Shown: positions 23,918 through 28,975 of the stretch, piece after piece
Numbering within the stretch: the stretch's first letter is position 1
How the letters are laid out: each line of letters starts with the position of its first letter
Source: an uncultured Candidatus Saccharibacteria bacterium
GTDB lineage: Bacteria; Patescibacteriota; Saccharimonadia; Saccharimonadales; JAGQNJ01
Direction: 5' to 3'
Assembly (NCBI GenBank): GCA_964590205.1
Contig: CAZPVO010000001.1
Span: 47,873-111,872 of the forward strand
DNA length: 64,000 nt
Notes under the pieces: model-generated
The model's database searches: none
The model's input: only the letters and a program-made list of their open reading frames with translations
Told to the model about the DNA's origin: nothing
Position numbers and translations under genes: made by a program

Positions 23918-24583
23918 GTGGAAATCTGGCAGCTTGTTTTAATCGTTACGGTGTTAATTGCGGCAACTGCGGCCTTTGTCTGGAACGCACTGCGTATTAC
24001 GCACCACAACCAAAGTCACCAAAATGTGTTGTCGCATGACACACATGATCCTAAAAAACAGCCGACTGGCGCTGATGCCACGTTATATCAAGATACCGAA
24101 CACGACATAGAGCATATTTTCGATGACAAGTTCCGTGCTGAACTTCGAAACCGCGGCCGACTTCACTTTGAAAAAATCATTGGCGAAAATGCCATGTTTC
24201 TACAGCAAGACCTTCGTTTGACAACTTCGCAGTTGAACGAATACATGAAGCAGGAAATTAATAAAACCCTGCAAGAGGAATTTAGTAAGTACGAACAATC
24301 TATCAACGATGCCAAACAACTGGCAATTGAATCTATTGAAAAAACTCGAGCCGCAATTGATCAACAGCGTCAAATTTTGGGAGAACGCCTCGAAGCCGAA
24401 GTCAAAGCTGAGAAAGAACGCCTCATCGCACGGTTTGATAAAAACATGTCCGAAATCGTGAATCATTATGTTGTTGCTGCAATTGGCAATCAGATAGATT
24501 TGGAAGATCAGCTGGAATATATTCTGGGCGATCTTGAAGCAAATAAAAAAGCAATTTTAGAGGATGTAAAAAACGGGGCGTAG
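23918..24583 (+). CDS. atpF: F-type ATPase peripheral-stalk subunit b-like protein (long, 221 aa)
   Basis: GTG start, a single N-terminal TM segment, then a long charged coiled-coil. It sits immediately before the delta/alpha/gamma/beta/epsilon genes. A TATAAT at 23865-23870 lies upstream. Confidence 0.55.
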   Translation: MEIWQLVLIVTVLIAATAAFVWNALRITHHNQSHQNVLSHDTHDPKKQPTGADATLYQDTEHDIEHIFDDKFRAELRNRGRLHFEKIIGENAMFLQQDLRLTTSQLNEYMKQEINKTLQEEFSKYEQSINDAKQLAIESIEKTRAAIDQQRQILGERLEAEVKAEKERLIARFDKNMSEIVNHYVVAAIGNQIDLEDQLEYILGDLEANKKAILEDVKNGA

Positions 24584-24597
24584 GTCCCTGGGCCACT

Positions 24598-25089
24598 ATG
24601 GCAGACAAACAAATATTACCAGCATCAATAACCGGCCGAACAGATCTTACACGACTTTCGCATGATCTGCAGATGTTTGATGAGCAAATGCAGCAACAAG
24701 CCATCAAAAAAGTTGCCAAACAACCAACTCCCGAAATGTCGGAGTTGCTGCAAACGGTCAGTAATGATTTGAAGCTTGATTTGAAAAAATCCGAGGACCG
24801 CGACAGCCTGAAGCAACTGCTGGATGAAACATTAAAAAGTTCGCCGGCTATTCACATGAGCTTCGCAGCTGTACCGAGCCCGGCTTTTATGCAAAAAATT
24901 GTTGCTTGGTTTCGAAAAGAAATCCATCCAAGTGCGCTGATTCAGGTTGGTCTGCAACCAGACATTGCCGCTGGTTGTATTGTTCGCACCGCTAACAAAC
25001 AGTTTGATTTAAGTCTTCGCCAATCATTGCAAGCCAAGCAGGCCTTACTGATTCAATCCATTAGGGGGCAAGATGAGCAACCAAAGTAA
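24598..25089 (+). CDS. atpH: F-type ATPase subunit delta (OSCP)-like
   Basis: The position in the operon and the C-terminal [30 protein letters not shown] match the OSCP C-terminal motif. The N-terminus is divergent. Confidence 0.65.
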
Positions 25090-26503
25090 ACACTTTGAGC
25101 AACTTGTTGCGGGGGGCAATCCAGTTGGTGAAGTGATTGCCGTAAATCGCTTTTTGGTACGAGTGAAAGGCCTACACCCAGTTAGTGTGCGTTCATTGAT
25201 TATGTTTGAAGATGGTAGCAAAGGCATGGTGTACCACGTGCTGAGTGATTATGTGCTGATATTACACATGGGCACGTCTGAACTGCAGGTTGGTTCAGTA
25301 GCCGTTGTCCAGCATGGCGACTTGGTATGTAAAGTTGGTAAGAGTTTTATTGGCCGCGTTGTCTCTGTAAACGGTGAGGCACTTGACGGCAAGGGTCCGG
25401 TCACGCCAGATGACACAAAGCCAGTGTTTGCCGAAGCACCACCGATGAACACCCGCGAAATGTTGAGTGATCAGCTTGAAACAGGCGTCACCGTTATTGA
25501 TTCGGTATTTCCAATTGTAAAAGGTCAGCGTCTGGCGATTTTAGGTGATAGTAAATCAGGCAAGACCACGCTCGCTACACAGTTGGCCATCAGCCAAAAA
25601 GACAAAGGAGTTATTGTTATTTACGTTATGATTGGTAAGCGTAGAAGCGAAGTAAATACACTGCTCACTCGATTGCAAGAAACAGACTCACTTAAAAATA
25701 GCATTGTAATCGTCTCAACCATTTTTGATTCACTAATCACTGGTTATCTTGCGCCATACGTTGGTTGCGCCATGGCCGAATACCTTTGGAAAGACTGCAA
25801 TCAGGATTCAGTGATCGTGTACGATGATTTGACGACCCATGCGTATATGTACCGCGAAATTGCGTTGTTATCAGGTGTGAGCCCGGGGCGAGATTCGTAC
25901 CCAGGTGATATGTTCTACGCCCATTCTTCACTACTCGAGCGAGCTGGAAAGCTCAAAGAGAACCACAAAACGCTGTCGTCAGTGCCACTCGTCTTGGCCT
26001 CTGGTGGTGATATTACGGCATTTTTACCAACCAACATTATGTCTATTACCGACGGTCAGTGGATTATGGATATGGAAATTTTCCGTGAAGGCGTGCGCCC
26101 CGCGCTTAATGTAGGTCTAAGTGTTACGCGTGTTGGCGGACGTGGACATAACGATCGACAAAAAAAGATTGCAGCTCAAGTTTTGCAAGCTTTAGCCTCA
26201 TATCGTCAAGCCCAAGAGTTTGCTCATTTTGGTTCAGAACTCGCGCTCGAAACAAAACAGCAACTAGAAAAGGGTAAACATATTCTTTCAGTTCTCGAGC
26301 AGGGTCCAAAAGAGTTATTTAGCACAATGGCTCAGCAGCTGATGCTCGATATTATTTTGACGAGCGGCGAAGGGCAGGTACTGGATATTGCAGCACTCAA
26401 ACTGGCTGTCGCAGATTATGCCAAGCAGGTAAAAGATGATAAAGATTACCCTCAAGTTTTAGAGGCCCTGCGTAGTAAAAGCACCATGGAGATTAAGCGA
26501 TGA
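25073..26503 (+). CDS. atpA: F-type ATPase subunit alpha (476 aa, short)
   Basis: The P-loop is [11 protein letters not shown] (canonical GDRQTGKT). [21 protein letters not shown] is also present. The gene overlaps atpH by 17 nt. Confidence 0.9.
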
Positions 26504-27345
26504 TTCGACCACAAGAACTGCTTAAAGATGTGCAAACCATGCAAACGCTTGTTGGCCTCACAGATATTTTTGAAAGTATTGCCAGCATGCACATCTCGGC
26601 AATCAAAAATCAGGTGCAATCGTCGCAAAATTTCTTTAATGAACTTTGGCCGATTTACACACAGCTGAGAGCTGACAAAGATTTTCATTTTGGTCAGGGT
26701 ACGGAGAGTGTTATTGAAAAAGAACTGTTAATTATTATTACTGCGGAAGGTGGTTTTAGCGGCGACATCGATCAAAAATTAGTAAAGCTTATGCTGAGTC
26801 AATATGATCCTGCGAAGAATGACATCATTGTTATTGGTCACCACGGAGCAATGCAGCTTGCACAGCACGGTATTCATTTCAAGCGCTATTACAAATTGCC
26901 AACCCGTGATAAAGATATAAATGTTACACCGGTTGTGAAAGAAGTTCAGCAGTATAAAACTACATCGATTTACTACCAAACGTATGTTTCACTCATGGTC
27001 CAGGATGTTAAGCGGATTTCTCTGCAGGCAGCAGTACAGGAGCGAGCCGGCCGAGCGGCGCCGTCCAAGGACGAAATTAGTGAAGTGACCTATATTTTTG
27101 AACCAAGTACATATGAGGTAATAGATCACCTGGAGCGCACCATGCTTCATGTAGCAATTAGTGAAACAATTTTGGAGTCTAAACTAGCTCAATACGCCAG
27201 TCGTTTCCAGGCGATGTCGATGGCTCATGATAAGGCTGATGAAACGACAAGTGATCTGAAAACACAATACAACCGAGCGCGGCGAGCCATTAAAGATGAG
27301 CGCCTCAAAGAAATTATTAGCGGTTTGAGAAAGGTGGCTGTATGA
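26500..27345 (+). CDS. atpG: F-type ATPase subunit gamma
   Basis: The N- and C-terminal helices are typical of gamma ([16 protein letters not shown] near the C-terminus). ATGA overlap at both ends. Confidence 0.85.
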
Positions 27346-28649
27346 GCAAGAAAGGCTACATCTCCGCTATCAAAAATCTCATTATCGAAGTTGTCTTTGA
27401 GGATGAAATGCCAAAATCGGGCGAGATTGTTATTGTCGATAATTCTGCCAAAGCAATTTTGCTGGTCGATAGTTTGTTGCCTGGCAACTTGGCAGTTTGT
27501 TTGAACATTAACGCAGACACCACGCTGCAGAAAAACATGAACGTCAACCTGACTGGGCAGAACTTTCAAATTCCTGTTGGTGAGGCAACTGTGGGGCGCG
27601 TACTTGATGCACTTGGTCAGCCAGTTGATGGTCAGCCTGCACTGAACGAAAAAGTTCCACGTCGCGATGTGTTTACGCCATCAAAAAATATCGAAGGTTT
27701 CACTGGAACCAAGCCAGAAATTCTGGAAACTGGCATTAAGGTTATCGATTTCTTCACACCGTTCGTGAAAGGTCGCAAAGTTGGCATTATCGGTGGAGCT
27801 GGTGTCGGTAAGACAGTGTTAATTACAGAGTTAATTCACAACGTTGCCAACACTAAATCAGCACTAAGCTTTTTTGCCGGTATTGGTGAGCGTATTCGTG
27901 AAGGCCACGAATTGTACGAAACCTTGACCGAGCGAGATCTGCTTAAAAACACTTGCATGTTCTTTGGTCAGATGAATGAAAATCCAATTAAGCGTGCGTT
28001 GATTGGTTTGTCGTCGGTTACGGCCGCGGAATATTTCCGTGATGAACAAAACAAAGACATCTTGTTTTTTGCCGATAACATGTACCGTTATATTCAGGCC
28101 AATAATGAGCTGGCAACTATTTTGGACCAGATTCCAGCTGAAGGTGGTTATGAAGCCACTCTATTCTCGGATGTAAAGACGCTGCAGGATCGATTGAGCT
28201 CAACTGAAAAAGGTTCAATTACGGCGGTGCAAACTATTTACGTGCCTGCTGACGATTTGAGTGATCCAGCCGTGCAAATGATTCAGCATGAACTTGATTC
28301 CACGATCGTGCTGAGTCGAAAAGTTGCCGAGCAGGGAATTCGCCCGGCTGTTGATTTAATTCGCACTAGCTCATCATTGCTTTCACCAGATATTGTTGGC
28401 GATCGTCACTACGTTTTGAGCGTACAAGTCCAGTCGTTGCTACAAAAATACGAGTCTCTTAAAAATATCATTGCCATTATTGGTGAAACGGAACTGTCTC
28501 CAGCTGATCGTGCTGATTACGCTAAGGCAAAACAACTGATTCAGTATTTCTCACAGGACGCACATGTGACCGAAGTTCTCTCGGGCAAGAAAGGACAGTA
28601 CTTCTCGCGTGAGGATATGCTTAAAGGTGTCGAGGAGATAATTGTTTAA
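27342..28649 (+). CDS. atpD: F-type ATPase subunit beta (435 aa, C-terminally short)
   Basis: [12 protein letters not shown]-loop, [11 protein letters not shown] and [11 protein letters not shown] motifs. The DELSEED position reads ETELSPAD. Confidence 0.92.
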
Positions 28650-28975
28650 TGGTAAAACGACAAGATGCCAGCACTGGTCAAATCGTTGATAACGGACAGC
28701 CGCCAGCTCCAGCAGCTCCAACCCCGCAACCAGTATCACTGCATATTAAGGTTCACTCGCCGTTCAAGATTTATTTTGAAGGTGAAGCTAGTAGCATCTC
28801 GGCAGTCAATAACACAGGACCATTTGATATTTTGCCGCTCCATCACAATTTTATTACGCTGTTAAACCCGTGCGATCTGGTGATACGCACTCAACAAGGT
28901 GAACAGCGCATTCGCATCACTCGAGGCGTCATGCACGTCAAAGCTAATTCGGTGAACGTTTTCCTCGACGTTTAG
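28649..28975 (+). CDS. atpC: F-type ATPase subunit epsilon, beta-sandwich domain only
   Basis: Last position in the operon. A roughly 78-aa beta-rich core follows a P/A/Q-rich N-terminal extension, with no C-terminal helical hairpin. Confidence 0.7.
   Translation: MVKRQDASTGQIVDNGQPPAPAAPTPQPVSLHIKVHSPFKIYFEGEASSISAVNNTGPFDILPLHHNFITLLNPCDLVIRTQQGEQRIRITRGVMHVKANSVNVFLDV

Follow-up and report, generated by a model that had tools for sequence, protein, structure and literature searches.

We analyzed a stretch of 64,000 nucleotides from an uncultured Candidatus Saccharibacteria bacterium (assembly GCA_964590205.1, contig CAZPVO010000001.1, positions 47,873 to 111,872 of the forward strand; hereafter the window), which carries six contiguous genes for subunits of an F-type ATPase. 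A previous reading of this DNA, made from the sequence alone, had described an operon at 23918-28975 with the order b-like, delta, alpha, gamma, beta, epsilon and without the genes for the membrane subunits a (atpB) and c (atpE). Examination of the open reading frames (ORFs) together with Pfam and NCBIfam searches confirmed this gene order, the GTG start and the 221-aa length of the b-like protein, and the presence of an upstream cysteine-desulfurase-like gene (CysDes), which encodes a class-V aminotransferase. The six products are designated here as b', delta', alpha', gamma', beta', and epsilon' (Table 1).

The operon of the window and its subunits

To place the locus, a beta' scan with one genome per species was carried out, which returned more than 565 relatives. 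All locus comparisons refer to the best 80 of them (81 sequences including the window), and these are all metagenome-assembled genomes (MAGs) of Saccharibacteria/Saccharimonadales. The closest relative is the complete 840-kb chromosome OZ246406.1, whose beta is 78% identical to that of the window. The surrounding gene order, MetRS-TatD-h122-CysDes-(ATPase genes)-...-MnmA-AlaRS, is syntenic across the related loci.

The absence of atpB and atpE held throughout the window in seed, hidden Markov model (HMM), motif and Pfam searches. When every window ORF of 40 aa or longer was searched by phmmer, seeds from E. coli, Bacillus PS3 and Ilyobacter gave no match at E<=10. The six-frame stop-to-stop translations of the 64 kb were likewise negative, both for a c-subunit HMM and for a scan with a-subunit motifs. 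Pfam analysis of ten selected membrane or unannotated window ORFs returned neither ATP-synt_A nor ATP-synt_C; the domains obtained included SecG, holin, YdjM, VTT and MFS. Subunit a (PF00119) is missing from both the window and the 80 related loci (10-21 kb each), and an ion-binding subunit c (PF00137, with its carboxylate in the second transmembrane (TM) helix, TM2) is missing from the window. The arrangement proved to be common to the relatives as well: the related loci share the b'-to-epsilon' order, and neither a nor c lies beside the operon in any of the 80 or in the six distant loci in which each gene was inspected (L082 and L084-L088).

The first ORF has no Pfam match and was named b' because of its b position, its single N-terminal TM helix (approximately residues 4-24) and the long, charged, helix-prone region that follows. 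It has a weak match to alt_F1F0_F0_B in NCBIfam (E=0.007), and b' is kept at the same position in 69 loci. A Shine-Dalgarno-like AAGGTGGG is located 11 nt upstream of its GTG start. Overlapping junctions, which had been proposed for the operon, were found at delta'/alpha' (17 nt), alpha'/gamma' (4 nt), gamma'/beta' (4 nt) and beta'/epsilon' (1 nt), but not at b'/delta', where a gap of 14 nt is present. The upstream TATAAT also exists, slightly downstream of the proposed position 23865. In a promoter scan, sites were no commoner than in shuffled sequence, and the TTGATT-16-TATAAT element is a consensus match only.

Table 1. Features of the ATPase locus (window coordinates; X is the gene described in the next section)
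Feature	Position	Strand	Description
Class-V aminotransferase (cysteine-desulfurase-like) gene	22713-23849		directly upstream of the operon
Promoter-like TTGATT-16 nt-TATAAT	23846-23873	+	10/12 consensus matches; TATAAT at 23868-23873
Spacer, cysteine-desulfurase-like gene to b'	23850-23917		68 bp; position of X in 49/80 relatives; no X remnant here
b' (peripheral-stalk-like)	23918-24583	+	221 aa, GTG start; no Pfam match
delta' (OSCP-like)	24598-25089	+	163 aa; PF00213, 23.5 bits vs 22.3 cutoff
alpha'	25073-26503	+	476 aa; PF00006, 218 bits
gamma'	26500-27345	+	281 aa; PF00231, 115 bits
beta'	27342-28649	+	435 aa; PF00006
epsilon'	28649-28975	+	108 aa; PF02823 at residues 31-106, beta-sandwich only
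Interval epsilon' to mnmA	28976-29844		in the window holds a 258-aa minus-strand ORF only

The catalytic machinery appears complete. GGAGVGKT occurs in 81/81 beta' sequences, all of which also keep G[IV]GER[IV]REG and DNxYR[YF]; the window beta' has an intact Walker motif, GERIREG and DNMYRY. As the sequence-only reading had pointed out, the alpha' P-loop is GDSKSGKT, and the arginine-finger context "RPA" of alpha' is conserved. A possible loss of the catalytic Arg in beta' ("LLGRMPS" replaced by "ILDQIPA") was considered and rejected, since the residue that binds phosphate, E. coli beta-R246, is the Arg within DNIYRY, a motif kept here as DNMYRY.

By contrast with canonical enzymes (the betas and epsilons used here came from outside Saccharibacteria), beta' and epsilon' are both shortened. 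The window beta' aligns to residues 3-434 of the 462 residues of Caldalkalibacillus beta; TELSPAD replaces DELSEED (the aligned Caldalkalibacillus stretch is "gmdelsdedkl"), and 30 residues follow the "..FSQ" motif vs 50-62 in canonical betas, so that approximately 28 C-terminal residues are gone. These values agree with the proposed DELSEED replacement and with a beta ending 25-30 aa early. The description of epsilon' as a 108-aa beta-sandwich with a P/A/Q-rich N-terminal extension was supported by PF02823 and TIGR01216: epsilon' matches only positions 2-79 of 130 in the latter, and the C-terminal helices are gone. Short epsilons are known in some canonical enzymes (NCBIfam NF009983, an 88-position model), and the epsilon truncation alone does not exclude the canonical class. 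Residues 1-30 of epsilon' (28649-28740) consist of a semi-conserved RQDASTGxI motif followed by a Pro/Ala/Gln-rich linker. In many soil-clade relatives the motif reads M-x-x-RQDASTG-x-I-V/I-D/E-D-G with a variable, low-complexity linker behind it, and in distant lineages epsilon' has 86-92 aa and no N-terminal extension.

Both [NST]ELSPxD and the short beta end ..EEI[IL][IV] are present in 81/81 family members and again in approximately 120 remoter beta' homologs (down to 50% identity). Because these oddities are lineage-wide, they are not annotation artifacts, and their recurrence across the family indicates ancient, family-wide traits. A co-ordinated change of epsilon and beta had also been suggested; the two changes do co-occur throughout the family, which fits the known interplay between DELSEED and the epsilon C-terminal domain, and the co-ordination itself is a matter of co-occurrence only. 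Against the NCBIfam equivalog models, alpha' (388 bits vs cutoff 484, TIGR00962), beta' (432 vs 463, TIGR01039), gamma' (102 vs 194, TIGR01146) and epsilon' (42 vs 67, TIGR01216) all score below the cutoffs, as does delta' for TIGR01145; the best PDB matches of beta' are ordinary F1 betas (E ~1e-108). Together, the data support an atypical complex rather than a mis-annotated canonical F1.

Two observations were made on other beta proteins. A homolog search from the nearest full-length canonical beta (P0123) yielded Parcubacteria-type enzymes, not canonical Saccharibacteria. In addition, three beta-like proteins of 523-670 aa (P0122, P0125 and P0128; 46-55% identical to the window beta') have long C-terminal extensions, which in P0122 and P0128 end in a common ..DW(Q/L)KEIG.ILP.E.. 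motif and in P0125 end differently.

Protein X and the accessory module of related operons

In 49 of the 80 related loci, the CysDes-b' gap of approximately 0.9 kb is filled by a gene of about 0.85 kb, designated here as X. The same is true of 6/6 distant Saccharibacteria loci (beta' ~50% identical), which all have the order X-b'-delta'-alpha'-gamma'-beta'-epsilon' and no ATP-synt_A or ATP-synt_C neighbor. Wherever X is found, the F1-like operon starts with it (examples are L010:5710-6579, L011:5596-6465, L082:5829-6641, L084:2816-3640, L085:2788-3639, L086:2830-3633, L087:2688-3503 and L088:2784-3620). The protein has 270-300 aa and consists of a signal peptide, a beta-rich ectodomain and a C-terminal two-helix hairpin, whose cytoplasmic G-R-N-P loop is invariant in 119 sequences. 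Its family comprises 1858 clusters, and the members listed are all unnamed or "hypothetical". An X HMM gave no match in the 64-kb window, which, like 18 other loci, is an X-minus variant.

Structural comparison offers a clue to the origin of X. In the AlphaFold model (predicted local distance difference test score, 86.6), the ectodomain resembles phage capsid cement/decoration proteins according to a PDB structure search. The hairpin superimposes on F-type c subunits in Foldseek with TM-scores of 0.8-0.88, root-mean-square deviations (rmsd) of 1.1-1.5 Å and 23-25% identity (for the Chloroflexus c subunit, 0.88, 1.1 Å and 24%). When the hairpin profile was compared with 177,635 distinct PDB sequences, the sole match, at E=0.02, was again the c subunit of the Chloroflexus ATP synthase, with which it has an IGRNP loop in common. 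Where c has its ion-binding Glu, TM2 of X carries a hydrophobic residue, and no carboxylate is present. Because X occupies the c position of the operon and is linked to c by the PDB profile match, the Foldseek result and the GRNP loop, it is likely, but not proven, that X is derived from c and no longer binds ions.

The presence of X coincides with that of a larger set of genes. In X-plus loci of the soil clade, the region from epsilon' to mnmA harbors a bactofilin-like gene on the minus strand, followed by ~6 kb that encode 5-6 proteins of 250-430 aa with signal peptides. One secreted protein of this block has a WxLIP_PGBD (PapD-like) domain, and a C-terminal TM helix is also found in the block (e.g., L013:11815-19300; similar in L011, L021 and L042). 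All 49 X-plus loci have the bactofilin-like gene, and the pilus-like block is present in every one that reaches mnmA. Among the 19 X-minus loci, the bactofilin-like gene is found in none and the pilus-like block is absent, with mnmA located ~0.05-1.3 kb behind epsilon'. The window lacks all three elements. In 50/50 bootstrap neighbor-joining trees based on MetRS, CysDes and TatD, X-minus loci fall into at least five clades, and they are similarly scattered in the ATPase tree. This scatter implies repeated joint loss of the three elements, while the six ATPase genes were kept.

A recent preprint (bioRxiv 10.64898/2026.03.03.709456) describes a pam operon of Ig-like pilins and membrane-anchored PapD-like chaperones; it reports that "ATP synthase" genes consistently adjoin this operon in Candidatus Mycosynbacter amalyticus and other Candidate Phyla Radiation (CPR) members, and that Pam pilins occur mainly in Saccharimonadia and Microgenomatia. 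By description, and not by alignment to PamA/B, the secreted-protein block downstream of the X-plus operons is probably the pam pilus operon. Giant ORFs were not found downstream of epsilon' in X-plus soil loci and appear in distant lineages only. There, giant proteins (>=1354 to 2977 aa) flank the X-type operon (L084:8910-12974, L085:8713-13980, L086:8729-15311, L087:1-2556 and L088:1-2576); one contains a Kelch beta-propeller and the rest have no Pfam match. They may correspond to the "tail fibre-like protein" named in the same preprint.

We then examined whether loss of the module is accompanied by relaxed constraint. Relative to housekeeping neighbors, the divergence ratios in X-minus and X-plus loci are 0.72 and 0.66 for beta', 0.93 and 0.85 for alpha', 1.01 and 0.90 for gamma', 1.01 and 0.91 for b', 1.51 and 1.33 for delta', and 1.10 and 1.13 for epsilon'. 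Thus, beta' is better conserved than MetRS, CysDes and TatD, and delta' is the fastest-evolving subunit. For each of the six subunits, X-minus and X-plus sets have the same mean column entropy, and neither measure detected an overall relaxation after X loss. Just a few positions are conserved when X is present and vary when it is missing (in b', F20, which lies in the TM helix, as well as T60, D69 and R81; T16, D139, I140 and S240 of gamma'; E44 of epsilon'). All six ORFs are intact in the 19 X-minus species. Purifying selection on the X-minus operons is therefore strong and undiminished, which indicates that motor and stator work without X. Since the ring-contacting parts of gamma' and epsilon' show no relaxation either, the idea of X as an obligate rotor ring is weakened.

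A proposed second type of ATPase cluster and competing explanations

Canonical ATP synthase operons are known from Saccharibacteria. Rhodopsin-bearing freshwater members have a contiguous a-c-b-delta-alpha-gamma-beta-epsilon operon (PMC9296517 Table S1), and in Southlakia epibionticum AtpI-a-c-b-delta-alpha (alpha of 511 aa) plus the remaining F1 genes are the only ATP synthase genes (PMC10633639 supplement), with gamma, beta and epsilon deduced from the annotation count of that supplement. KEGG Orthology (KO) counts of five complete genomes (PMC12592800 Table S5) show a single set of a, b and c in each. Candidatus Nanosynbacter lyticus TM7x and RAAC3_TM7_1 have one copy each of alpha, beta and gamma, and Candidatus Saccharimonas aalborgensis, GWC2_44_17 and Candidatus Mycosynbacter amalyticus have two copies of each, a duplication on which the authors of that study did not comment. 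A beta' labeled "Ca. Saccharimonas sp." is located in an X-type cluster. We infer that the second alpha/beta/gamma set of complete genomes is the X-type cluster, of which the window operon is a member. Given one a/b/c set in 5/5 complete genomes and two alpha/beta/gamma sets in 3/5, the window operon is best interpreted as a second, paralogous cluster type. A canonical F1Fo operon is probably present elsewhere in the same genome, as judged from the KO counts of other genomes, and any a or c gene elsewhere would most likely belong to such a complete operon with its own F1. We found no paper in the literature that treats the Saccharibacteria cluster as a distinct F1-like paralog.

We therefore consider it reasonably probable that the six genes encode a paralogous Saccharibacteria F1-like ATPase with its own stalk and without a or ion-binding c, distinct from the housekeeping F1Fo, and that its accessory module has been deleted in this genome. 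The lineage-specific, atypical F1 head of the sequence-only reading is retained in this interpretation, as its features are real and lineage-conserved and its catalytic residues are intact; what changes is that the operon most likely belongs to a paralogous cluster type and does not look like the cell's F1Fo operon after loss or relocation of atpB and atpE.

Three other explanations must be weighed against this one. The genes might be the sole F1 and stalk of a split canonical ATP synthase whose atpB and atpE (possibly also atpI) have moved, i.e., an ordinary proton-coupled enzyme with lineage-specific regulation. Fo/F1 operon splits do occur in alpha-proteobacteria and cyanobacteria. All soluble and stalk subunits are present here with intact catalytic residues, purifying selection is strong even without X, the fact that gamma' and epsilon' stay equally constrained once X is lost suggests that contact with a ring persists, and the literature assumes H+-ATPases in soil Saccharibacteria. 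However, complete Saccharimonadales genomes with a single a/b/c set (including their own K02109 b) still show a second alpha/beta/gamma set (PMC12592800), the known canonical Saccharibacteria operons are contiguous, all six window proteins score below the equivalog cutoffs, and the a/c place in relatives is held by a c-like protein lacking the carboxylate. A split canonical enzyme thus appears quite unlikely.

An unlikely explanation, too, is that a and c are absent from the whole genome and that the complex is its only rotary ATPase, one which translocates no ions and serves, e.g., energy dissipation or a mechanochemical task. In the order CAILAD01, a/b/c were assigned by KO in 0/15 genomes and alpha, beta and/or gamma in five (PMC12592800 Table S5); members of this order may be Saccharimonadia with no rotary ATPase other than an Fo-less one. 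This point is weakened by MAG incompleteness and by the insensitivity of KO assignment. The only ATPase operon of a closed WWE3 genome is atypical, its "a, b, c" being without homology (PMC3812714), and soil CPR surveys report F-type ATPases that are "nearly complete" or of "varied completeness"; on the other hand, 5/5 tabulated complete Saccharimonadales genomes have a, b and c (PMC12592800). As for the notion that the six genes became functionless once X and the pilus module had been deleted and are now a remnant heading for loss, the accessory module has indeed been lost repeatedly and ATP synthase genes are dispensable in Southlakia. Nevertheless, six intact ORFs in 19 X-minus species from at least five clades, the agreement with X-plus genomes in per-column entropy and in conservation measured against housekeeping genes, and the preserved overlapping start/stop junctions all speak against decay; the undiminished constraint effectively rules it out, and we regard it as very improbable.

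Under the preferred interpretation of a paralogous F1-like ATPase, the complex would comprise a catalytic head of alpha'3beta'3, a central shaft formed by gamma' and epsilon', and a peripheral stalk of delta' and b', with the single TM helix of b' tethering the head to the membrane. ATP hydrolysis would turn gamma'-epsilon' against this membrane-anchored stator, making the complex a motor rather than a proton-coupled synthase, and on its own it would not translocate ions. The epsilon C-terminal domain and DELSEED act as a pair in epsilon inhibition, as seen in studies of Bacillus PS3 F1. The usual brake would be gone here, and the fact that the epsilon helices and the acidic DELSEED residues are missing together suggests constitutive competence for hydrolysis. 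In most relatives, the covariation of X with the bactofilin-like gene and the pilus-like block suggests that the motor can couple to a surface apparatus. Because the whole accessory module is deleted in the window, the retained motor and stator must serve a function that needs no X; an X-minus motor might dock on another ring, e.g., the housekeeping c-ring should a canonical operon be present, or on some other partner.

Several points weigh against this interpretation. ATPase activity and assembly are predictions from the genes. The KO table does not tell which alpha/beta copy is which, and coexistence with a canonical operon is deduced from other genomes. The homology between X and c is borderline by sequence: Pfam ATP-synt_C matches 1/119 X proteins, a local hhalign comparison of the X hairpin with seven c subunits gave a probability of 2.9%, and helical hairpins match easily by structure. 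X may instead be a component of the pilus rather than a part of the ATPase. The identity of the pam operon is based on descriptive traits (signal peptides, the WxLIP_PGBD/PapD-like match and the C-terminal TM helix), and the trees are simple neighbor-joining distance trees.

A bolder proposal, which we advance tentatively and consider rather unlikely, is that Saccharibacteria and related CPR have turned a second rotary ATPase from an ion pump into a mechanical motor, whose shaft would either rotate or hold in place an X ring made of c-derived hairpins that have ceased to bind ions, each with a capsid-cement-like domain on the cell surface, and this ring would be functionally tied to the bactofilin-like protein and the Pam pilus. 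The window would then contain a stripped motor, perhaps an unbraked alternative F1 head on the housekeeping Fo. If true, this would be an F1-driven machine that passes force through the membrane to a filament or attachment organelle outside the cell.

Comparison with known rotary ATPases

The cluster is best classed as an F1-like ATPase without Fo, and the window holds its X-minus, pilus-minus sub-variant. The subunit families, the b-to-epsilon order and the catalytic motifs are those of canonical F1Fo, such as the Southlakia epibionticum operon and the Chloroflexus aurantiacus enzyme (PDB 9itj). In contrast to these, the window has no a, c or AtpI; its epsilon' is devoid of the C-terminal helices and its beta' of the acidic DELSEED patch and the final ~28 residues, and alpha' has 476 aa vs 511 aa for Southlakia alpha.

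The closest conceptual parallel comes from mycoplasmas. Like their F1-like X0 ATPases, the cluster is an extra set of alpha/beta/gamma/epsilon-like genes beside a canonical F1Fo (a coexistence deduced from other genomes in the present case) in a genome-reduced, host-dependent bacterium; it likewise has no a or c genes, is genetically linked to a surface machine and probably acts as an ATP-driven motor. The mycoplasma clusters reportedly lack delta and b-like stalk genes, whereas the Saccharibacteria cluster keeps both and carries a c-derived protein in relatives. The window proteins also fall short of the corresponding NCBIfam models, with 285 bits vs a cutoff of 520 for alpha (NF045936) and 400 vs 570 for beta (NF045934), and they score higher on canonical atpA/atpD; for NF045863 and NF045858 the scores are 333 vs 600 and 338 vs 850 bits, again below the cutoffs. 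The Saccharibacteria cluster is of an origin independent of the mycoplasma clusters, within the CPR. Of the mycoplasma enzymes, Type 2 is the G1-ATPase of the gliding motor and Type 3 is associated with MIB-MIP (PMC11864180, PMC12994834).

Similar odd operons were described by Kantor et al. in 2013, who reported a WWE3 ATPase operon, common to OP11 (Microgenomates), whose "a, b, c" show no homology to known subunits (PMC3812714). These WWE3/OP11 operons combine normal alpha, beta, gamma and epsilon with adjacent odd membrane subunits, including a lineage-specific "c-like" TM protein, and by description they may be akin to the X type; they differ in that the membrane genes are kept there, whereas in the window only b' remains. 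The cluster is specific to Saccharibacteria, possibly shared with Microgenomatia/WWE3.

Two further families can be set apart by score. N-ATPases have their own a and c plus AtpQ and AtpR, in the gene order atpDCQRBEFAG, and they too form a second F-type operon beside the canonical one in some bacteria. The window proteins score far below their cutoffs (396 vs 752 bits for TIGR03305 and 323 vs 750 bits for TIGR03324), and no a or c is present in the window. FliH-FliI-FliJ is an F1-related ATPase with a gamma-like shaft, a b/delta-like tether and no ion-translocating ring. Against FliI/SctN export ATPases, however, the window proteins reach 175-210 bits vs cutoffs of 380-600; they are clear F-type alpha/beta heteromers, and no export-gate genes are located nearby.

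These findings bear on how CPR metabolism is reconstructed. Metabolic reconstructions of Saccharibacteria and other CPR routinely count such alpha/beta/gamma genes as a proton-driven ATP synthase or as "nearly complete" F-type ATPases; if many of them belong to a separate Fo-less paralog, conclusions on respiration and proton motive force need rechecking. After mycoplasmas, this would be a second independent case in which a tiny host-dependent bacterium has recruited an F1 motor, here with the stator kept and, in relatives, a remodeled c subunit. The joint presence or absence of X, bactofilin-like and pilus genes provides a concrete hypothesis for the cultivable Candidatus Mycosynbacter amalyticus, and X-minus variants such as the window are natural "deletion mutants" in which motor function is independent of the X module.

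Some other ORFs of the window deserve mention. The minus-strand ORF between epsilon' and mnmA (28982-29758) carries a DnaA C-terminal helix-turn-helix (PF08299, E=9e-20) without the AAA+ part, and no homolog of it was found in the 80 related loci. Approximately 13 kb upstream of the ATPase genes, the ORF at 9695-10870, which has an N-terminal GGGFGG dinucleotide-binding motif, may encode a type II NADH dehydrogenase. This candidate adjoins a hydrophobic 179-aa ORF without a Pfam match (9111-9650). Starr et al. reported ndh and ATPase genes in the same region of T. rhizospherense.

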